Positions 28,094 through 38,542 of a stretch of DNA of 64,000 nucleotides are shown here, piece after piece. The DNA lies in the NCBI GenBank assembly GCA_036830315.1, contig DAISOU010000003.1, positions 30,064 through 94,063 of the forward strand. The letters run 5' to 3'. Below the pieces are notes generated by a model. That model saw only the letters and a list, made by a program, of their open reading frames with translations, was not told where the DNA came from and searched no databases. The translations under genes and the position numbers were made by a program. This DNA comes from Bacillota bacterium (GTDB lineage: Bacteria; Bacillota_I; Bacilli_A; RFN20; CAG-288). Each line of letters begins with the position of its first letter. Position 1 is the stretch's first letter.

Positions 28094-30262
28094 ATGAAAT
28101 ACAACAGGCTTATTCTTCTTTTATCTTCGCTCTCACTAGTAGCAGTATCTTCCTGCAATTCTCAGAGCTCAGACAATAGCTCTTCCTCGGTCGTAGCAAC
28201 GACAAAGAAACTGTCGATTTCCTATTATCCGACTAACATGTATAACCAATATGATTCTCTTGATCTCTCTGACTTAGCTGTAAGCGCTCAGTTATTTGAA
28301 GGAGACACTCAGACTGGCCTAGAAGCTACAGTCTCCGATTATTCTTTAGTCTGGGCTGATAGCGGACAGAGAGCCTATGACGGAGAAATATTACTGACTT
28401 CTGCCGATTCTATGAGTGTTTTGGTTACTAAAGAGGGCTATGTCTCCACATCATTTACAATTTCCGTCAATCCCTCCTCGTCTTTCACTCAGACTCTGAA
28501 AGTGACTTCCGGAATCGTCAATTCCTATAAGCCTAATTCATCGTTTGATCCAACTGGATTAGTAGTTTTGATGAAAACTAGTTATGTCGATGAAGATCAA
28601 ATCGTTCATAATAGCAGCAAAACCTTATCAAAAGATGAATATTCAATTTCGATAACCACGCCCTCAGATGAAACCGAAGCCGTTTTTTCTTCGTATGCTC
28701 TGACTGAAAGCGGCGCTTATAAAATCACCATCAGGGCCGACGGATACAATGATGTCAAACTATCTGTTTCTTATAGTATCTATGTCTATAAAGATATTGA
28801 TATGTCACCCAAGACCTATACTGATAGCACTATCAGCTGGGATAGCGATGATACGACAATGACCGTCAACATCAAAAATCCCAATAAAGAATCTACTTCC
28901 GACAAAGGATATTATTCTCCCGAAGAAGTAGACTGTGACTACAATATCTTTTCTTATGGCAAAAATTCTGCCACAGGCTGGGTTACAACACCGACAACGG
29001 GAAAAGTCCCCCTGCTGGTGATTCCGATAAAGGTTCCGGGAACAACTACTGCAACCGAAGAAAACTGGTCTTTGATCAACAAGGCCTTCTTTGGTGATTC
29101 TCAAGATCTTGACTTTGAATCCCTCCACTCCTATTACTACAAATCAAGTTTTGGTCAGCTTGATTTCACCGGTGCCATCACTGAATGGTTCGATACTGAA
29201 AAAGAAACCACTGATTTGAAAAAGCAATCAGATTTTGATTATTATTCAGTCGGAAATTTAGCAAGTGAGGCTGTGACCTGGGCACAGAAGACCTACAATC
29301 TCGATCTTTCAAAATACGATTACAATAAGGATGGAATAATCGACGGCGTATGGTTGGTCTACTCAAAGCCGGCTATCTCAGGAGATGATGTCTGGTGGGG
29401 TTATACTAGCAGCACTTCAAAGTCAGGAACCGTCAACAATCCTGTCGTCAACACTTATGGCTGGGTGTCAGTCAACTTCCTCGATGGCACTGTATATAAC
29501 AAACCTACTGAATGTGATGCCCATGTTCTGATTCACGAAAGCGGACATTTCCTAGGCTTAAACGACTATTACTCATACAATTCCACAACTTATTCTCCTT
29601 TAGGAACAGTCGATATGATGGATCTCAATATCGGTGACCACAACCCTTATTCAAAACTCCTCTATGGCTGGGTCAAACCATATATCGTCTATGGAAACGA
29701 CGTGACTATCACCTTAAAATCATCGCAGTTAAAGGACAATCTGATAATCATCCCCTATGATTCAAAGACCTATTCCGACACCGACGGAGACGTCCTTATC
29801 AACTTCAATATGTTTGATGAATACTTAGTTGTCGACTATTACACCGATCAGAATCTAAATGGCTCTGATTATAATATGTATTCTGCTTTGCATGTAAGGG
29901 GAAAAGGAATCCGTCTCTATCACGTCGATAGCCGCCTGATGATTTACGCTAAATCCAGTTACACTTTGCCTTCTGATCCGGATTCGGCCTTGACTAGCAA
30001 CAGTCTCTATCATGTGATTTCCAATTCTGAAGCCGGAAGCCGAGGCGAAGAACACTACAATTCTCAATTCAATAATGCCTGGGATGAGATCAGATGGATT
30101 GATTCTGATCCTACTAGTTATATGAGCGGCAGTCATAAAGCAACTAATTCAAGCCTCTTTAAAACCGGAGACAGTTTTACCCTAGATTCTTATTCTTCAC
30201 AGTTCGTCAATGGAAAATTTGACAACGAAAAAGACTGTTCCTATATAATATCTGTTCGATAA
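28094..30262 (+). CDS. Surface lipoprotein zinc metalloprotease (M6/immune-inhibitor-A-like HExxHxxGxxD) with two N-terminal Ig-like repeats
   Basis: 722 aa with lipobox AVSS-C and two roughly 100-aa repeats of Ig-like pattern. The motif HESGHFLGLNDYY resembles the M6 family HExGHxLGLxDxY. Confidence 0.7.
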   Translation: MKYNRLILLLSSLSLVAVSSCNSQSSDNSSSSVVATTKKLSISYYPTNMYNQYDSLDLSDLAVSAQLFEGDTQTGLEATVSDYSLVWADSGQRAYDGEILLTSADSMSVLVTKEGYVSTSFTISVNPSSSFTQTLKVTSGIVNSYKPNSSFDPTGLVVLMKTSYVDEDQIVHNSSKTLSKDEYSISITTPSDETEAVFSSYALTESGAYKITIRADGYNDVKLSVSYSIYVYKDIDMSPKTYTDSTISWDSDDTTMTVNIKNPNKESTSDKGYYSPEEVDCDYNIFSYGKNSATGWVTTPTTGKVPLLVIPIKVPGTTTATEENWSLINKAFFGDSQDLDFESLHSYYYKSSFGQLDFTGAITEWFDTEKETTDLKKQSDFDYYSVGNLASEAVTWAQKTYNLDLSKYDYNKDGIIDGVWLVYSKPAISGDDVWWGYTSSTSKSGTVNNPVVNTYGWVSVNFLDGTVYNKPTECDAHVLIHESGHFLGLNDYYSYNSTTYSPLGTVDMMDLNIGDHNPYSKLLYGWVKPYIVYGNDVTITLKSSQLKDNLIIIPYDSKTYSDTDGDVLINFNMFDEYLVVDYYTDQNLNGSDYNMYSALHVRGKGIRLYHVDSRLMIYAKSSYTLPSDPDSALTSNSLYHVISNSEAGSRGEEHYNSQFNNAWDEIRWIDSDPTSYMSGSHKATNSSLFKTGDSFTLDSYSSQFVNGKFDNEKDCSYIISVR

Positions 30263-30332: not shown

Positions 30333-31379
30333 TTAATCAGTTATATGACTTTCGTGCTTTCTCTGATATCGGACCAGAGAATAAGATCCAAAGAAGCCAG
30401 CTACCATCAAAGGAAGAGAAATAGCAAGATCAATGATGCTCTTTTGAGTAAGACCGTTAGCCCAGGCGACATAGATGGCGACAGAATCCGTATTGAGGAA
30501 GATGGCGATTATCGAACCTAAGGACAATCCGACAATCAGATGATAGACAAAGTCTCGATTCCAGGAGAACAGTTTATCGATGACCTTCGAGGTCAAGACA
30601 AATCCTAAGATGACTCCAACCGCCATAAGAAGATAGAAAGCGAAGATCTGCGGATACAATTTGAAGTATTCCATACTGACTGAGGAAACCAAGGCTTTGA
30701 AGTAACCGATCATCATCAAGAAGGCAGTAGCACTAAGTCCCGGGACGACCTGAGTGAGACCTAAGACAAAGCCTATCGGAACGGCGATGACATATAACCA
30801 CCAGGGGAAGTCTTTGAAGGTATCGATTGCCAGCTGATAGTCTTTAGTGTCTTCTCCCTGAGTCAATGACAGATATGGATCTTCAAACGATCCTTTTGAT
30901 AACAAGACGGCAATTCCGCCGATAAGAAGAGGAACTAAGATTCCGGAAAGGAAGACCAGAGACTTTCCAGTGGTTTTAGAAGAGCCTTTGATTTCCTGGA
31001 AGACAACAGGGAAGGAGCCTATCATCAAACCGGCAAAGCAGCAGATCATGGCGAAAGGCACTATACCCAAAAGCCATTTGATAGCAAAGAAACCGGCTGG
31101 GAATCCGACGATGAATCCGATGCCTATCGGAAGAAGGAAGAAAAAGCATTTAGAGAATTTCTTAAATAGATTTCCGAAGGCGAATATCATCTTGTCATAT
31201 AGTTTAAAGATAATGGCGATAGCGGCTCCCGATATTCCTGGAACGACTACGGCAATACCTAAGATGATGCCAAACAGAAAGCTTAGCCACCATTTCTTCG
31301 TATTGTATTTTCCTAATACGTCTTCATATTCAATTGCCTTTTCAGGTTCTTTGTTTTCGTTTTTATTTTCTTCTGACAT
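30333..31379 (-). CDS. DUF368-family membrane protein (candidate polyprenyl-phosphate translocase)
   Basis: Polytopic membrane protein with duplicated VPG(I/L)S(G/A) motifs (VVVPGISGAAIA and QVVPGLSATAF), as in DUF368. I chose the ATG at 31379, which has GGGAGA upstream. The ORF-track start at 31445 has no RBS. Confidence 0.75.
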   Translation of the reverse strand: MSEENKNENKEPEKAIEYEDVLGKYNTKKWWLSFLFGIILGIAVVVPGISGAAIAIIFKLYDKMIFAFGNLFKKFSKCFFFLLPIGIGFIVGFPAGFFAIKWLLGIVPFAMICCFAGLMIGSFPVVFQEIKGSSKTTGKSLVFLSGILVPLLIGGIAVLLSKGSFEDPYLSLTQGEDTKDYQLAIDTFKDFPWWLYVIAVPIGFVLGLTQVVPGLSATAFLMMIGYFKALVSSVSMEYFKLYPQIFAFYLLMAVGVILGFVLTSKVIDKLFSWNRDFVYHLIVGLSLGSIIAIFLNTDSVAIYVAWANGLTQKSIIDLAISLPLMVAGFFGSYSLVRYQRKHESHITD

Positions 31380-31498
31380 GGTTCTTTCTCCCGTATGGTA
31401 AAGATTATACAAGTCTAAAGAAGAAGAAGAAATCAAAATTGACATGAAAAGGTTTTTAAGCAGTCAGAAAAACAGTTCTTCCTGACACTTCAGTAAAG

Positions 31499-31896
31499 TT
31501 ATCCACAATTATTTTTACCATGGCGAAAGTCTTTATACTAGCCTGTTTTTTATGTTGCTTTTTCATTGTGCTTTTCAGTAGATAACTATTGTTGATAATT
31601 TGCTGTCAAAGTGGATAAGTACTTAGACTTATCAACAGGTTATCAACAGAAAAAGCGGTTATCAACAGGGTGTTGATAAGTGTTTTAAATCATTGTTAGT
31701 TTAGACAAAACACCTTATTTTATCGTATTTTTTAGTTGTGGATAACCTAGATAATTGTTAGTAGTTATCAACTTATCAACAACGAAGTTATCAACATCCG
31801 ATTTATCAACAGGTTATCCACAATAGCTCTTGTGTGGATAAGTTGTTTTAAGTAAATTTTCTAAGTAAATAAAAATTGTACTAAAATTGTGGATAA
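31499..31896. promoter_or_regulatory. oriC part 1: dense DnaA-box cluster upstream of dnaA
   Basis: Perfect TTATCCACA occurs at 31499(+), 31737(-), 31814(+), 31833(-) and 31888(-). TTATCAACA occurs at 31590(-), 31629(+), 31640(+), 31659(+), 31671(-), 31773(+), 31788(+) and 31803(+). TTATCCACT is at 31610(-) and TTATCAACT at 31765(+). Confidence 0.9.
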
Positions 31897-31976
31897 CTAT
31901 TTTTAAGTTAGAAAACTCTTAACTTATCAGTGCCGTTACCTTATAATTTTACTTGCAATTGTAAAGAGATATTAAA

Positions 31977-33344
31977 ATGCACGAAACCACTAAAGACCGC
32001 CAGGTCCAAAACATATACAGCCAATTGTTAGAAGAGCTTAGAATTCAGATTAAGCCCAAGCTTTTTGACAATTTCTTTTCTGCTGATTCTTTTGACCTTA
32101 AATCCTTAGATGGAGGCAAGGCTGTCTTTGTCGCTGATTCCGAGTCTAATGCGACAATGATCAAAGCTGCTTTCCTTCCTCTTATATCTGAATCTCTGAG
32201 TAAAATCACTGAGACAAAATACTTAGTTGAGATAACAGATCGTATTTCCTATCTCAAGAGAAAGAATGCGGTCGAACAGGCCGATACGAAGTTCTTCCAG
32301 AACTGTCATATCTCTTCCTTATATACCTTTGATAACTTTGTCATCGGTCCTTCCAATAAAAATGCATATCTAGCTGCCTTATATGCGATTGAAAACCCGG
32401 GTAAAAGCAATCCTATCTTCCTTTATTCCAATTCCGGCATGGGTAAGACTCACCTGCTTCAGGCTATCGGAAACGCCTATAAACTCAAGAAACCTGAAAG
32501 CAAAGTCCTTTATATAACAACTGATGACTTCGTTTCGGAATTTGTCCGTTTCATCAAAGGAAACAAAGGGAGCGAAAATCTTAAAGATTTCTTCTCCACT
32601 GTCGATTTCCTTCTCGTTGACGATATTCAGTTTTTAGCCGGAAAAGAAGATACTCAGGTCATGTTCTTCAATGTCTTCAACCTGATGGTATCTCAGGGAA
32701 AGCAGATTGTCCTGACTTCCGATAGAAGTCCGTCAGAATTAAAAGGTCTTCAGGATCGTTTGGTATCTAGATTCTCAGGCGGTCTTTCAATCGGAATATC
32801 GAATCCGGAAAAAGAGACTCTGATTGAGATTCTCAAGATGAAAATAAAAGCCAACGGACTGTCAGTCGATCTCTTTGATACTGATGTCCTGACATACTTA
32901 GCCTATAACTATTCCAAAAACGTCCGTGAATTAGAAGGAGCCTTTACTAAACTCCTCTTCGCTCTCACCATTCACAAAGATATCAAGCAGGTGACCTTGG
33001 ACTTCACTAAGACAATCTTTGAAGACGATGAAGTTAGGAGAGCGAAGACTGGTAAAGTCGATATCTCTTCTATCATCCAGGCCACAGCTGAATACTATTC
33101 CCTGACTGAGACTCAGCTAAAATCAAAAGTCCGAACCAGCCAGATTGCCTTAGCAAGACAGATAGCGATGTACTTGTCCAGAAATCTACTTGATCTTCCC
33201 TATCAGGAAATAGGCCGACAGTTTGGCAAAGATCACTCGACTGTCTTAGCTAACGTATCGAAGATTCAGAAGACTTTAGATAACGATCCTTCTCTTCGCA
33301 AAGCCGTAAATGACTTGTCTTCTCAAGTCAGAAAAGCAATATAA
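31977..33344 (+). CDS. dnaA: Chromosomal replication initiator protein DnaA
   Basis: 455 aa. It has the AAA+ Walker A site (SNSGMGKTHLLQAIGN), the Walker B site (LLVDDIQFL) and the C-terminal DNA-binding helix region (DHSTVLANVSKI). Confidence 0.97.
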   Translation: MHETTKDRQVQNIYSQLLEELRIQIKPKLFDNFFSADSFDLKSLDGGKAVFVADSESNATMIKAAFLPLISESLSKITETKYLVEITDRISYLKRKNAVEQADTKFFQNCHISSLYTFDNFVIGPSNKNAYLAALYAIENPGKSNPIFLYSNSGMGKTHLLQAIGNAYKLKKPESKVLYITTDDFVSEFVRFIKGNKGSENLKDFFSTVDFLLVDDIQFLAGKEDTQVMFFNVFNLMVSQGKQIVLTSDRSPSELKGLQDRLVSRFSGGLSIGISNPEKETLIEILKMKIKANGLSVDLFDTDVLTYLAYNYSKNVRELEGAFTKLLFALTIHKDIKQVTLDFTKTIFEDDEVRRAKTGKVDISSIIQATAEYYSLTETQLKSKVRTSQIALARQIAMYLSRNLLDLPYQEIGRQFGKDHSTVLANVSKIQKTLDNDPSLRKAVNDLSSQVRKAI

Positions 33345-33352
33345 AAGCATAT

Positions 33353-33377
33353 AAAAAGGCTCTTTCGAGCCTTTTTT
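33353..33377. terminator. Bidirectional terminator after dnaA
   Basis: AAAAAGGCTC-TTTC-GAGCCTTTTTT lies between convergent genes. Confidence 0.7.
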
Positions 33378-33395
33378 GATGAAATAAGCTTAATT

Positions 33396-34442
33396 CTACT
33401 CTTTTCTCATGTGCCCTTTTCTGGAATGAATTCTGATAGATCCACCTTGAGTCTTCACCAATGACTTAGCATAGTCGATAGCCTGAGCCTGCGTGTCGAA
33501 GAGCTTGATAGCTTTCTGTCCGGTAGCTAATTTGACCTGCCAGACACCAGAAGGCTGTCTTCCGATATGATAAACACGAGGTCCGTCTCCATAGCCTTTT
33601 GCCTTAGCTTCCTTCTCAGCTTTGATCTCGTTCTTCTCTTCCTCTTCTTCACTTCCCTCATCTACTTCTTCAATTTTGATATCTTCTTTTTTCTTCATAT
33701 TATCGTCTCCTTTTTCACTATCATCGTTCTTCTCTTCTTTCACATCGTCAACAGACTCTTCTTTGACTTCTTTTTCATCATTATCAGTGCAAGGCAGAGC
33801 TTCTGCCGTTTTCTTTTCTTTGTTCAACACGTTTGTGCCAAGAACTAAAAGGAAAGAGATTATCTCTGTTCCTATGACCATTCCTAACACCCAGAGAAGA
33901 GAAACCCACCATTGCTGATTGTTGATGTCCATGAAGAAGTAAGGAGGTTCAATAGTATTTACGGCAACAAGAGGAATGATTATAGCCGCATAAAGAACCA
34001 TAGGTATGACTCCGTAGAGGGAATCAAAGAACGAGAATCTTTCTCCTTTGTCTATATCTATAAAGAGGAAGGAGATAATTCCGATAAGCGGGAAGACCGT
34101 ATGTACCCAGAGAGAATAAGATGGCTCATATGCCATACTCCATCTGCCGGTAATTGGACAAAGACAGCAATAGACAGTAATCAGAGTCAGAGTTACACCG
34201 ACTGTACCAGCAAGTTTAAAAATCAGAGCGGCTTTAGGCACTTTTGTTCCCTTTATAATACTTATTGTCTGGAAAAGAGCAAAGACTAAGGCGGAAAGAG
34301 CAAAGAGAATGTTGCTGTCATTAGTGAACATGACAAATGTATTCGTTCCGTTCTTTAGATAGTGAAGGCAAAGGACGACAGCTTCTCCCAGAAATACCAA
34401 ATATGACAGAACAGCGGAAACAAGCTTTCGATTTCTATTCAT
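33396..34442 (-). CDS. Fusion protein: about 6-TM membrane domain, acidic Lys/Glu/Asp linker and C-terminal DUF2188 domain
   Basis: 348 aa. The N-terminal ~200 aa are hydrophobic helices, with an FTNDSNILFA motif. A low-complexity linker follows (EEKNDDSEKGDD...EEEEEKNE). The C-terminus YHIGRQPSGVWQVKLATGQKAIKLFDTQAQAIDYAKSLVKTQGGSIRIHSRKG fits the DUF2188 pattern. Confidence 0.7.
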   Translation of the reverse strand: MNRNRKLVSAVLSYLVFLGEAVVLCLHYLKNGTNTFVMFTNDSNILFALSALVFALFQTISIIKGTKVPKAALIFKLAGTVGVTLTLITVYCCLCPITGRWSMAYEPSYSLWVHTVFPLIGIISFLFIDIDKGERFSFFDSLYGVIPMVLYAAIIIPLVAVNTIEPPYFFMDINNQQWWVSLLWVLGMVIGTEIISFLLVLGTNVLNKEKKTAEALPCTDNDEKEVKEESVDDVKEEKNDDSEKGDDNMKKKEDIKIEEVDEGSEEEEEKNEIKAEKEAKAKGYGDGPRVYHIGRQPSGVWQVKLATGQKAIKLFDTQAQAIDYAKSLVKTQGGSIRIHSRKGHMRKE

Positions 34443-34672
34443 GGCGGGATTATTCCTTTCTTACCATTTCAATTTTAATTCATATAAAAGAAAAAAGATA
34501 ATTATTTATCTGCAAATACCTTTTTATTTGCTCTTTCTTCTAAAATTTATTCTCAATATCATCAGAACATAATAGATTGAGTGTAAATCCCATTTTTTAT
34601 AAAATGCGTTCTAATTGTGAATGTTCTTAATAAATGCTATTCTTATCGTGATATAAAGAGATCAGTAAATTT

Positions 34673-36889
34673 ATGAAAAAAATCAAATTCAAATTTCTCT
34701 TGTTGCCTCTTTCGTTCGCTTTGTCAGTCTCCTCCTGTGATCAGGTCACTTTTGCAAGTTCGATAACTGATAATTCTTCTGTTTCTTCTTCCGTTACAGC
34801 TGGAGTCACTTCTGATAGCGGCAATAAAACAGATTCTTCTAAAACAGATTCTTCTGCCCCTTCTTTTCCTGACAGCTCGATTTCAGCCGGTGCTTCAACA
34901 ACGGGTTCCAATTCTAAAGATGACGAAGACAATGATAAACATAACAATCTTGATAAGCTGATTGATAAAATCACTCTTTCTATCGATAATATCAGTGAAA
35001 AATACCTTTCTGACATCACTGCGACTGATATAAAAGTCTCCGTTTTTGATACAAAGCTATATAAAATCACTCTGGAATTAGACAAAGATTCCAAGGAAAA
35101 CTCCTTAGAGGTCGAATATTATCTGACTGAGATAAAAACCGACAAAAAATCAAAAAAGAAAGAAAAAGAATTCACAGGTTTCAAGCTTCCTGAATACGAA
35201 ATTGAAAAGAATCTGAATATCACTGGATTCGATGCTGACAAAAGCATAGATGAAGGATCTTCTTTTTCTTTCTCCGTCTCTCTTGCTTCTAAGCCCAGAA
35301 ACAACATCGATATCTCGTTGTCTCTTTCAAATGAAAACGGAACTCTTTCTTCTTCTCTTTTAACCTTTACTCCTCTTGATTTCAGCACTTATAAGAATGT
35401 TTCCTTATCAACCATAAAAGACACTTCTTTTGATGACAAAGACGTCTATGTTTCTTTTTCTCATTCAGGAAAAGAAATCAAAAAACGCCATTTAATCATT
35501 AAAAACATCGATATTATAGAAAAACCAACTATTATTTTTCCTTCTTCTTTGACTATCAAAAAGAATAAAAGAAGCAGTTTCTCAATATCTTTAGACAAAG
35601 CACCGAATGAAAGCACTGAAATATCTATTTCGTCTTCCAGTGACAAAGTGACCTTCGACAATAAGATTCTTGTCTTTGATAAGAACAACTACAAGACAGA
35701 ACAGGCCTTCTTCTTTACGATAGAAGAAGCCGAGACTGCTTCTTCTATCACTTTCACCTTGTCTTCTAAAGGTCTTGTCTCCAAGCAGATTCAAGTAGAC
35801 ATAGAAGAAACCGAAAAGGAAAACTTTGAATACTTAATTCCCTTTGAATCAGGCTTTATAACTGATCCCGTCTATTATTACACCGCCTATTATGACGTCG
35901 ATTTCAAAATAGAAAAACTGTCTGTATCCTTTAACAGTTCAGATGTGTTTACCGATATCACAGAGATCATGGACTCGACTTTCACAAACAACGCCTGCAT
36001 GATCTATCTCAAGACTTTCAATTTCTCTTCTAATCCTACAGTCAGATTAAAAGCCGATTATTCAAAAAAGACTGAAAAACTTGTCGGAAACCCCACTTTT
36101 GAATTAGAAGGATACCGGATAAAAGCCACTTTAGGTTCTTATACTGAGTATTTTCTTCCTTCTGCCGTCAGTCCTTATGCCCTGATCAATATTTCGACTG
36201 AAGTGAAACTTGAAAACTTCCTTCATTTCACAAGGGAATCGGCTTCCGGTGTCGTCGAAGAATTCTATCTGGCTTTACGTCCTAAATCTGGAAGCCGCTT
36301 AGCAGTAGATGGTTTATCTCCGACCAGCTTTGCCAAAGTGATAGAAGTCAGTAGTTATAGAAACAAAAGATTTTACGAACGGAACTTCCTTAACTACTAT
36401 AGTTACAACAATGACTTGAAAGTCATTACTTTTAACGACAATACTTCAAAAGACTTAGATAACTATTCTGATTGGAAAATGACTTTAAACGAATCTGTCA
36501 ATGTCTTCAATAAGACCATGGTATCCTTTGGATTAGATATCAGTTTAAAAGAAGATTCAGAAAGCAGAAACTCAGTTCATTACGGAGAACTGGATTTTGA
36601 AAGCCCTATGGGAGGAACCACGGCCGGTCTTTGTAAATTCAGCGCAACAAATAACCGCTTTGAAATTTTCCTCAACAACGGTCCTTATGTACTCCCCACT
36701 AAGGAAAAAATGAGATCAGCTATCACTCATGAGATAGGACATCTTCTGGGATTGGCCGATTTTCCTTATGCCTCATCCGATTCACTTTATTCTTATGGAC
36801 GGGATTCAGAAGTTATATATTTCCAGCCTAACGACATCGTAACTTTCAGAAGCTGGATCGATAAAGAAAACACCTCCACTTTCTTCTAG
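34673..36889 (+). CDS. Surface lipoprotein with a C-terminal metzincin-like zinc protease motif (HExxHxxGxxD)
   Basis: 738 aa with lipobox SVSS-C and a Ser/Thr/Asp-rich linker. It contains a tandem 15-nt duplication encoding KTDSS at 34826-34855. The C-terminal motif is AITHEIGHLLGLADFPY. Confidence 0.7.
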   Translation: MKKIKFKFLLLPLSFALSVSSCDQVTFASSITDNSSVSSSVTAGVTSDSGNKTDSSKTDSSAPSFPDSSISAGASTTGSNSKDDEDNDKHNNLDKLIDKITLSIDNISEKYLSDITATDIKVSVFDTKLYKITLELDKDSKENSLEVEYYLTEIKTDKKSKKKEKEFTGFKLPEYEIEKNLNITGFDADKSIDEGSSFSFSVSLASKPRNNIDISLSLSNENGTLSSSLLTFTPLDFSTYKNVSLSTIKDTSFDDKDVYVSFSHSGKEIKKRHLIIKNIDIIEKPTIIFPSSLTIKKNKRSSFSISLDKAPNESTEISISSSSDKVTFDNKILVFDKNNYKTEQAFFFTIEEAETASSITFTLSSKGLVSKQIQVDIEETEKENFEYLIPFESGFITDPVYYYTAYYDVDFKIEKLSVSFNSSDVFTDITEIMDSTFTNNACMIYLKTFNFSSNPTVRLKADYSKKTEKLVGNPTFELEGYRIKATLGSYTEYFLPSAVSPYALINISTEVKLENFLHFTRESASGVVEEFYLALRPKSGSRLAVDGLSPTSFAKVIEVSSYRNKRFYERNFLNYYSYNNDLKVITFNDNTSKDLDNYSDWKMTLNESVNVFNKTMVSFGLDISLKEDSESRNSVHYGELDFESPMGGTTAGLCKFSATNNRFEIFLNNGPYVLPTKEKMRSAITHEIGHLLGLADFPYASSDSLYSYGRDSEVIYFQPNDIVTFRSWIDKENTSTFF

Positions 36890-36987
36890 TTTTATAGGTT
36901 TTACTGCACAAGATAATGACTAGTTTTCTGATTTAGAATCTTTTGAAATCACTCTGGTTTCCTGGGGTTTTTAAGTTATATCCGGAT

Positions 36988-37190
36988 TTATCCACAATCG
37001 TTGTGGATAAATCCTTTTTTATCAACAGAGAATGTGGATAGATTTCGTTCAACAACACATAAATAAAATAAAAAGAAATCTATGAAAAGCTTCGTGTTTC
37101 ACGATAGTTTTCACACTTATCGCAACTTAGACAAAACAAAAGATTTTTCAGTTATCCACCAATCCACAGCCCCTTATTATTATCATTATC
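36988..37190. promoter_or_regulatory. oriC part 2: DnaA boxes plus a candidate unwinding module upstream of dnaN
   Basis: TTATCCACA at 36988(+) faces TGTGGATAA at 37002. TTATCAACA is at 37019(+) and CTATCCACA at 37033(-). Tandem boxes TTATCCACC and AATCCACAG lie at 37152-37169. They are followed by GCCCC (37169-37173) and the 3-nt-periodic run TTATTATTATCATTATC (37174-37190). AT-rich DNA then runs up to dnaN. Confidence 0.75.
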
Positions 37191-37381
37191 TGTAGTATTC
37201 TTTAGATTACTATATTAAGCCTTGAGGCTTGACTGACTTAATCGAAGAAAAGACGAAACGGAGCAAGGAACGAAAAAGATAAAAAATGTTGATGGATATT
37301 GAGGTTTTGTCTTTTAAATAAAGGTCTTATAGACTATAATATTATTAATATATTTATTTAATATAGAGAGGATTTTTAAAA

Positions 37382-38542
37382 ATGAAGTTAACTATAAAAA
37401 GACAGGAATTTTTAAGACTTCTTACCTTTGTCAGTCAGGCTATCCCAGCCAAATCAGCTGAGAGTCAGTTTATGAATTTCCTTTTAGACTGCAAAGAAGA
37501 CAGCCTTTCAATCATTGCCAGTGATGGCACTATCTCTGCCAAGATTGCAACTAAGGCCAAAGATGAAAAGGGCAATGATGTGATCATCAATGCCGAACCT
37601 GGTCTTATTCAGACTCCTGCCAAATATCTTCTTGATATCGTAAGCAAGATGGGCGGTGATGTCGTCACTCTCAACATGGTTGACACCAACTATCTCAATA
37701 TCTCCGATGATTCCACTAATTTCAATCTCATCACCAAAGCGGGTGAAGAATATCCCAATGTCGATTTGAATGTTCCTGAAGACAACCAGGGATTTAAAGT
37801 GTCTTTAGGTGATTTAAAGAAACTCTTTGATACCACCTCTTATGCAGTTGCAACCAAAGGTCCCAAAGATCTTTATTACGGAATCAATGTTTCGGTGAGA
37901 TCTGGAAAACTGTATTTTATGACTACTGATTCTTATCGTATGGCCAGAATGGCCGTCAATGAGAAGGATAACGATGCCGCTTTCTCTTTCACCTGCCCTG
38001 TCAAAGCCTTATCGATGGTAACTAATATTGTCACTAACGGCGAATGTGTCATCTACTTCGATGAACAGAGAGCTCTCTTTGTCGCTGACGGTGTGACTCT
38101 GTCCACTCGTCTTATCAGAGGAGACTTCCCTTCAATCGATAGAATAATTCCTTCTTCTTTCCCCTATTCTGTCAGCGTCGAAAAGGACGAATTCTTAGCA
38201 GCTGCTGACCGTGTGAGAATCATCTCTTCCGCTGAAGACAAGAATTCTCAGGTCAAGTTTACAATCTCCCGTGACACCGGTGTCACTATCTCTGCCCGTT
38301 CCACCAATTATGGAAACTCGCAGGAAATCCTCAGAAGAGCTTCCTATGTCCTTCCTGACGGAGAAGATATCTTCGAGATCGGCTTCAATGTCGATTTTGC
38401 TGTTGCGGCTGTCAGAGCTCTGGCTTCTGAAAAGGTCACATTCGTCTTCGCCGCTCCTACTAGAATGTTCATGGTCAAGAATGATGATCCTGAAAATATT
38501 CAGATTGTCACTCCGATCAGAATGAACACCTTTAACGATTAG
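37382..38542 (+). CDS. dnaN: DNA polymerase III beta sliding clamp
   Basis: 386 aa with the typical beta-clamp N-terminus (MKLTIKRQEFL) and three-domain length. It lies downstream of the DnaA-box cluster. Confidence 0.95.
   Translation: MKLTIKRQEFLRLLTFVSQAIPAKSAESQFMNFLLDCKEDSLSIIASDGTISAKIATKAKDEKGNDVIINAEPGLIQTPAKYLLDIVSKMGGDVVTLNMVDTNYLNISDDSTNFNLITKAGEEYPNVDLNVPEDNQGFKVSLGDLKKLFDTTSYAVATKGPKDLYYGINVSVRSGKLYFMTTDSYRMARMAVNEKDNDAAFSFTCPVKALSMVTNIVTNGECVIYFDEQRALFVADGVTLSTRLIRGDFPSIDRIIPSSFPYSVSVEKDEFLAAADRVRIISSAEDKNSQVKFTISRDTGVTISARSTNYGNSQEILRRASYVLPDGEDIFEIGFNVDFAVAAVRALASEKVTFVFAAPTRMFMVKNDDPENIQIVTPIRMNTFND

Follow-up and report, generated by a model that had tools for sequence, protein, structure and literature searches.

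In the bipartite oriC of Firmicutes the two halves of the origin are split by dnaA only, which raises the question of what becomes of such an origin when further genes come to lie between its halves. We addressed this question at the dnaA-dnaN region of a 64,000-nucleotide stretch of DNA (hereafter the window), positions 30064 to 94063 of contig C3 (DAISOU010000003.1) of a metagenome-assembled genome (MAG) that comprises 60 contigs and 1.68 Mb and is 89% complete. Its relatives are uncultured Bacilli and include, in the same genus, the MAG UBA7642 and a genome labelled Candidatus Enterosoma, the name given to GTDB genus UBA7642 of order RFN20, family CAG-288 (PMC8035907). An earlier reading of the letters of this DNA (the sequence-only reading) had placed the end of dnaA at 33344 and the start of dnaN at 37382, with a DUF2188 membrane-protein gene and the gene for a 738-aa lipoprotein between them. 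Both coordinates are exact, giving a separation of 4,037 bp, and analysis of open reading frames (ORFs) and Pfam domains agrees on the two genes. The product of dnaA matches Bac_DnaA (4.6e-57) and Bac_DnaA_C, and that of dnaN matches all three beta-clamp domains. The genetic code is table 11; the alternative table 4 was tried and adds nothing to the ORFs of the window. We consider it quite likely that the locus is the chromosomal origin of a Candidatus Enterosoma species (GTDB UBA7642, order RFN20), with two conserved parts around a permissive linker that gained genes stepwise.

In order to define the two parts, DnaA boxes were counted as TTATCCACA with no more than one mismatch. The upstream cluster contains 14 such boxes, where ~0.09 would be expected per 400 bp from the genome background of 0.223 boxes per kb; the sequence-only reading had listed 15, one too many, but its five perfect boxes were recovered. 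The cluster on the dnaN side contains five boxes at 36988-37160, two of them perfect, and a two-mismatch box, AATCCACAG at 37161-37169, adds one degenerate box to it. No box with one mismatch or fewer was found between 31896 and 36988, and in the whole assembly these are the only clusters of at least five boxes. The scan thus finds each of the two clusters, in line with the earlier view that both had been retained despite the insertion, and the distance from the last upstream to the first downstream box, 5,092 bp, agrees with the ~5 kb that had been estimated. The same reading had called the upstream cluster unusually dense, which comparison with relatives does not bear out, as it is typical of the genus: related species carry 10-16 boxes upstream of dnaA, with a span of mostly 382-392 bp (~387 bp). 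The array is undecayed in genomes with stretched origins, with 14 boxes in the window, 12 in genome G035, 14 in genome G005 and 13 in locus L082. The position of a promoter-like site beside this array suggests DnaA autoregulation. The coordinates of all features are collected in Table 1.

Table 1. Features of the dnaA-dnaN region, in positions of the window.
Feature	Position	Strand	Details
Upstream DnaA-box cluster (oriC1 / incAB-like)	31499-31896		14 boxes, 5 perfect; TTATCAACA is the commonest variant
dnaA promoter-like site	31919-31947	+	TTAACT-17-TATAAT; consensus match only; just past the last box
dnaA	31977-33344	+	455 aa; single copy in the assembly
Hairpin	33353-33376		T/A runs on both flanks; terminator-like; common to the convergent dnaA and DUF2188 genes
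Inserted gene 1	33396-34442	-	348 aa; 6-7 hydrophobic segments, acidic linker, C-terminal DUF2188
Inserted gene 2	34673-36889	+	738 aa; lipoprotein with C-terminal HEIGH (M57-like) zinc-peptidase motif
Terminator-like hairpin	36951-36968	+	ends the lipoprotein gene; 20 bp ahead of the first box of the module
Distal sub-cluster	36988-37041		two inverted pairs of boxes (four in all), -164, -150, -133 and -119 relative to the proximal box
Proximal tandem box pair TTATCCACC-AATCCACAG	37152-37169	+	TTATCCACC at 37152-37160
GC cluster	37170-37173	+	CCCC; AATCCACAG plus CCCC form the 13-bp spacer from first box to trios
Six DnaA-trios	37174-37191	-	+ strand TTA TTA TTA TCA TTA TCT, that is 3'-AAT AAT AAT AGT AAT AGA-5'; central A in each
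AT-rich stretch	37192-37381	+	presumed unwinding zone; includes a dnaN promoter-like site at 37313-37340
dnaN	37382-38542	+	386 aa

The dnaN-side cluster has the appearance, in its sequence, of a complete unwinding module. The basal unwinding system (BUS) of bacterial origins is recognized by a DnaA box, a spacer of up to 16 bp (13 bp being the commonest) and at least three DnaA-trios with a central A (PMC8287927), and the window shows an adjacent box, a 13-bp spacer, six consecutive trios and, adjoining these, AT-rich DNA: the 47 bp that begin with the first trio (37174-37220) are 81% AT against a window mean of 59%. A scan of 24 species spacers in the genus recovered the core of the module in 19, and the information content is high in its elements, with 1.75 bits per column for the first box, 1.27 for the GC cluster, 1.16 for the second box and 1.09 for the trios, against 0.33-0.35 for the flanks. 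A distal box is found at -161 to -165 in 15 of the same 24 spacers, and the sequence in between is not conserved. No second copy of the module was found in the 89%-complete assembly. In the incC region of Bacillus subtilis, the proximal subregion is acted on by distal boxes whose distance may vary, probably by looping (PMC6669920); since the module here has its own distal boxes at a fixed spacing, it looks self-contained. The locus may therefore be described, from its sequence, as two parts with fixed internal geometry, a ~390-bp box array over the dnaA promoter and a ~230-bp self-contained module.

This arrangement was compared with systems that have been characterized experimentally. In B. 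subtilis (incAB-dnaA-incC) and Clostridioides difficile (oriC1-dnaA-oriC2) a box cluster lies on each side of dnaA and is followed by dnaN, as here, and the downstream cluster of both consists of a box pair, a GC cluster, DnaA-trios and AT-rich DNA, as in the window. Their halves, however, are ~1.5 kb apart, whereas those of the window are 5.1 kb apart with two unrelated genes (3.6 kb) in addition to dnaA, so that the adjacency that defines the Firmicute bipartite oriC is lacking; the upstream neighbour also differs, being a DUF368/VCA0040-like gene in the window and rpmH-rnpA in the B. subtilis/C. difficile type. With the BUS of Richardson et al. 2019 and Pelliciari et al. 2021 (PMC6669920, PMC8287927) the window shares tandem boxes facing the trios, the 13-bp spacer, six trios with a central A and upstream distal boxes that possibly loop, but its trios are mostly 3'-AAT-5' where 3'-GAT-5' occurs most often in the BUS, and the distal-to-proximal spacing in the Enterosoma genus is, unlike that of the BUS, fixed at 161-165 bp. 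Helicobacter pylori (oriC1-dnaA-oriC2) likewise has two box clusters split by a gene, although it belongs to another phylum, has dnaA as the only separator and has been validated experimentally; its clusters are thought to interact by DnaA-mediated looping, and the complex proximal to the DNA unwinding element (DUE) is sufficient for opening. An engineered bipartite oriC of Escherichia coli, in which a box cluster was moved a gene's length from the DUE, still supports helicase loading and still works, with reduced efficiency in vivo (PMC13643167); this spacing of about one gene is artificial, whereas that of the window is natural and three to six times longer. The locus would thus seem to fit the Firmicute bipartite-origin/BUS design in every sequence feature tested except adjacency. 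In the open-access literature, searched by full-text term matching only, we came across neither a description of genes inserted naturally, over several kilobases, into a bipartite origin of Bacilli nor one of a genus-wide series of such insertions.

To place the window among its relatives, we examined 45 species genomes of the genus, of which 37 have dnaA and dnaN on one contig. The spacer between the two genes measures 305-520 bp in 24 of these and 620-840 bp in four, and it reaches at least 1 kb in the remaining nine (1066, 1068, 1129, 1418, 1504, 1891, 2661, 3964 and 4037 bp), so that 13 of 37 spacers are of at least 0.6 kb. By comparison, the spacer is 127-309 bp in 18 co-oriented genomes from six other genera of the family and 132-175 bp in 11 genomes from other families of the order. 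The census genomes are mutually related and these counts are therefore descriptive rather than independent samples. In a tree of DnaA plus DnaN the species with large spacers do not group together, and each has a sister whose spacer is short, which argues for at least four or five separate expansions. Their cargo is diverse and includes, among others, an ABC transporter pair (G005), a 187-aa lipoprotein (G046/G011) and a 276-aa membrane protein (G048), while the spacer of G035 holds an IS66 element and a membrane gene that belongs to the subfamily of the DUF2188 protein but has no DUF2188 domain. In this relative, a single contig of 2.08 Mb (locus L089, G035:C1:804686-808849), a complete IS66 element (Orf2/TnpB and DDE transposase) lies between the module and dnaN, which places dnaN 3.7 kb from the unwinding site.

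The inserted DNA does not keep to one side of the module. It lies on the dnaA side in the window, L082, G005, G048 and G036, and in the smaller expansions of G039, G054 and G016, and on the dnaN side, with the module adjoining dnaA, in G035, G046/G011, G047 and G002. The module is therefore not tied to dnaN, and the earlier statement that the second cluster had stayed with dnaN is true in the window without reflecting a special tie, as the four latter cases keep the module by dnaA. Gene order itself also varies: in locus L087 (G037:C82:660-3054, boxes at 1527-2151) dnaA is inverted with respect to dnaN and a 12-box array lies 150 bp from the module, which makes that origin effectively continuous, and in genus g17 of the family (genomes G066 and G067) dnaN and dnaA are divergent and 675-919 bp apart. 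Across the genus the two clusters, both of them retained, are ~0.15 to 8.6 kb apart. On this basis we propose that the DNA from the dnaA terminator to the module may serve as a permissive linker, in which gene gain of an ordinary kind accounts for the present locus taken by itself. The anatomy of the locus, its conservation, the lineage-specific and repeated insertions and the reproducibility across assemblies are direct observations.

The sequence also suggests how such an origin would work. DnaA bound to the tandem boxes at 37152-37169 would oligomerise onto the trios and open the adjacent AT-rich DNA, the distal boxes of the module, 164 bp upstream, would raise the local concentration of DnaA, and the far upstream array would mainly regulate dnaA (autoregulation) and act as a DnaA reservoir. 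Should the upstream array also help in firing, this help must tolerate distance, for instance by looping, because the clusters persist in the genus at natural separations of 0.15 to 8.6 kb. A serious alternative is that the origin is functionally monopartite, in that only the module fires and the array does no more than autoregulate dnaA and titrate DnaA, so that stretching would be inconsequential and no looping would be needed. In favour of this are the distal boxes that the module itself carries at a fixed 164 bp, of the kind that supply looping in incC of B. subtilis (PMC6669920), the lack of constraint on inter-cluster distance across the genus, where inserts are found to both sides of the module, and the overlap of the array with the promoter-like site of dnaA. 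Published work differs on the importance of the distal half: the engineered E. coli origin works, if less efficiently, whereas B. subtilis and H. pylori reportedly cannot do without either half in vivo (PMC6669920) and melting of the C. difficile origin in vitro needs both (PMC7561715). A further point against the monopartite reading is that the array, with its 10-16 boxes and its rigid span of ~387 bp, is larger and more rigid than would seem necessary for promoter control alone. The data cannot decide between distance-tolerant cooperation and functional independence of the two parts; we regard independence as the less likely of the two, although it is a possibility to be taken seriously.

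With regard to the history of the linker, alignment bounds the insert by the hairpin just after dnaA (33353-33376) on one side and the module's first box (36988) on the other, so that it covers ~33380-36950, or ~3.6 kb. The nearest species without it are L021 (= G012), with a spacer of 486 bp and a DnaA that is 79% identical, and L022 (= UBA7642), with a spacer of 497 bp and a DnaA that is 76% identical; in both a hairpin is found at the equivalent position 3' of dnaA. The short spacers of these nearest species confirm that the insertion is lineage-specific, and a universal presence of the same two genes in relatives was not seen. A different picture is given by L082, a 334-kb metagenome contig with the same flanking genes as the window, a DnaA and a DnaN that are 78% and 79% identical, and a spacer of 7.5 kb in which dnaA is followed by a gene for a 131-aa protein (-), a GH3 gene (-), a LytTR response regulator (+), a histidine kinase (+), the DUF2188 gene (-), the module and dnaN. 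A tree built from DnaA, DnaN, PepT and an S8 protease unites the window and L082 in a clade apart from L021/L022 (SH-aLRT 96 / UFBoot 89).

These data suggest that the insertion was probably two-step. The DUF2188 gene would have entered the linker in the common ancestor of the window species and L082, the window species would then have gained the protease gene between the DUF2188 gene and the module, and L082 would separately have gained four genes between dnaA and the DUF2188 gene. Whether the insertion was recent, as the sequence-only reading had asked, thus receives a divided answer: the protease gene is species-specific, whereas the DUF2188 gene is older and common to L082, so that a single event is improbable. 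We also considered a single recent event that brought in all ~3.6 kb together, given that the two genes are adjacent and divergent, that together they fill the space from the dnaA terminator to the module, and that L021 and L022 have neither gene at the site. We think this unlikely, since L082 carries the DUF2188 orthologue in the same interval and orientation and has no protease gene, the two DUF2188 proteins (46-77% identical) have diverged on the scale of core proteins (~70%), the two inserted genes differ in GC content (34th versus 6th percentile), and no transposase, integrase, tRNA or flanking repeat was found at the segment. More specifically, Pfam gave no transposase or integrase domain in either inserted gene, direct or inverted repeats around the insert did not rise above noise, and neither a tRNA nor an Rfam family marks it. 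The window insert therefore lacks the marks of a mobile-element source, whereas the spacer of G035 holds IS66.

The first inserted gene encodes a protein of 348 residues in which Pfam places the DUF2188 domain at residues 292-347 (9e-13), and its GC and GC3 are in the normal range of the genome (GC at the 34th percentile). Its nearest relatives, in L082 and G035, are also found in the dnaA-dnaN spacer. The proteins of the window and L082 belong to one well-supported subfamily and are 46% identical in the membrane part and 77% identical in the DUF2188 domain, a divergence that is on the scale of core proteins (~70%). A polytopic membrane-protein subfamily, two members of which have a C-terminal DUF2188 domain, is accordingly present in the dnaA-dnaN spacer of three Enterosoma lineages, on differing sides of the module, and the positions listed for homologues are 33396-34442 in the window, 10001-11008 in L082, 2883-3617 in L089 (G035) and 6001-7050 in L080. 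Another organism has a more distant homologue, P0010 (38% identical), which is flanked by jag and mnmE at a distance of 4 kb from dnaA. A general tie of DUF2188 genes to the origin was considered and rejected: no DUF2188 match was found on the dnaA contig in 30 relatives, and P0005 and P0007 are found in unrelated contexts, which limits the association to one subfamily. A bolder reading, which we hold to be doubtful, is that the parts of the Ca. Enterosoma origin may work at almost any separation (0.15-8.6 kb), that the linker may be favoured as a landing pad by newly gained surface and membrane genes at the position of highest dosage on the chromosome, and that the recurrence of the subfamily beside the origin might be functional rather than that of a passenger, the DUF2188 membrane protein being, for instance, a membrane tether or a regulator of initiation.

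The second inserted gene is predicted to encode a putative M57-like zinc metallopeptidase. The match to Peptidase_M57 (PF12388) is weak but above threshold (26.1 bits against a cut-off of 21) and covers profile positions 36-149 of 212; the HEIGH motif is at residue 686 and the lipoprotein-type N-terminus ends ...SVSSC. No homologue was found in 30 relatives, and in a collection of 5.8 billion protein sequences the sole match to the 738-aa protein is a 95%-identical conspecific. The GC content of the gene is at the 6th percentile of the ORFs of the genome. Among conspecific assemblies there is an in-frame length polymorphism at 35572-35604 (738 versus 724 aa), and the lipoprotein gene is the most diverged part of the locus, with a nucleotide identity of 96-97% from 35605 on against 98-99% up to 35571. 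An origin by duplication of the gene for a 722-aa M6-like lipoprotein, located upstream, was rejected, as only the HExxHxxGLxD region is common to the two (E = 0.002 over 32 residues).

To investigate the position of the origin by strand asymmetry, GC skew was examined, as had been proposed earlier. In bulk, in the window and along contig C3, GC skew takes weakly negative values to the left and to the right of dnaA alike, and at fourfold-degenerate sites it follows the coding strand, C- and T-ending codons being strongly preferred and third positions of the coding strand being pyrimidine-biased (GC skew at these sites, GC4, of ~-0.54; AT skew, AT4, of ~-0.38). The plus-strand fourfold-site skew of each gene was therefore fitted to the coding strand and a position term. 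After this strand correction the GC4 offset is ~0 on nearly all of the large contigs (genome contigs C1-C20), while the AT4 offset is ±0.09-0.19, with |t| up to 6.8, on most of them, which is what replication-strand asymmetry would give. As the genome has no replication-linked GC skew, the GC-skew test cannot decide here; run as proposed, it shows no switch at dnaA and is uninformative in this genome, but the strand-corrected AT4 does switch at the cluster on the dnaA side. On C3 the net AT4 offset is near 0 and the best change point, at 60-62.5 kb, coincides with the upstream cluster (t = -4.6 to -4.9, permutation p = 0.002). If the leading strand is T-rich, the AT4 polarity matches that of an origin; this T-richness finds weak support in a correlation with the orientation of genes on 27 contigs (rho = -0.42, p = 0.03). 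In twenty 20-kb stretches of the single-contig genome G035, the bulk AT skew changes sign around dnaA with the same polarity; no GC-skew pattern was seen in these stretches and gene orientation is untidy. The AT4 switch is supportive but not decisive for an origin at this locus.

It could be argued that the true origin is elsewhere and that both box clusters are merely regulatory, around dnaA and dnaN, given the missing GC-skew switch, a cumulative GC-skew minimum on C3 near 90 kb and the mixed gene orientation to the left of dnaA. We consider this very improbable: the 89%-complete assembly yielded no other box cluster or BUS-like module, GC skew has no replication signal here and AT4 skew, which has one, flips at the locus, and the module is conserved across the genus. 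That the contig is a chimera joining dnaA and dnaN to foreign DNA, a concern with a 60-contig MAG, is for practical purposes refuted, as two other conspecific assemblies from different sources (96-99% nucleotide identity) carry the same gene order, one contig of ENA ERZ27249489 spanning dnaA through dnaN and one of NCBI GCA_041667665.1 spanning dnaA into the protease gene.

Several points nevertheless weigh against the account given here. There is no GC-skew switch at dnaA, in bulk or at fourfold sites, and the GC4 change point is found near 92-97 kb of C3. The control contig C2 also has an AT-skew change point (t = +4.5), without a sign change, and the correlation that sets the leading-strand polarity is a weak one. 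To the left of dnaA, 68% of the coding sequence is on the + strand, unlike what a strong leading-strand gene bias would give. Support for the clade of the window and L082 is moderate, and the related membrane gene of G035 lies on the other side of the module, so that a single ancestral insertion cannot explain all three occurrences. Finally, we infer unwinding at the module and any role of the upstream array from the sequence, and because both halves are reportedly needed in B. subtilis, H. pylori and C. difficile, the separation of 5 kb might carry a cost.

The surroundings of the origin show further features of the genus. The gene immediately upstream (30333-31445) is DUF368/VCA0040-like (undecaprenyl-phosphate translocase-like), not the rpmH-rnpA usual in Firmicutes; it is kept in many species of the genus and in others is replaced by an ABC-type 598-aa homologue. 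The gene at 28094-30262 encodes the 722-aa M6-like lipoprotein, which has a match to a Shr-like heme-binding domain; several Enterosoma species (L022, L027, L040, L042 and L082) likewise retain it close to dnaA.

These results bear on how origins are located in this group of bacteria, since programs that look for an origin by the adjacency of dnaA and dnaN or by GC skew can go wrong in RFN20 and other Mollicutes-like Bacilli; the usable signal here is the fourfold-site AT skew corrected for coding strand. They also bear on the cooperation of the halves of bipartite origins, which is still debated, with looping demonstrated or put forward for B. subtilis, H. pylori and the engineered E. coli origin. 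The genus is a natural series in which the same parts lie 0.15 kb apart (dnaA inverted), 1.5 kb apart (the canonical arrangement) or 2-8.6 kb apart (insertions), with other species having their insertions between the module and dnaN, and it thus offers ready-made constructs for the distance dependence of origin halves.

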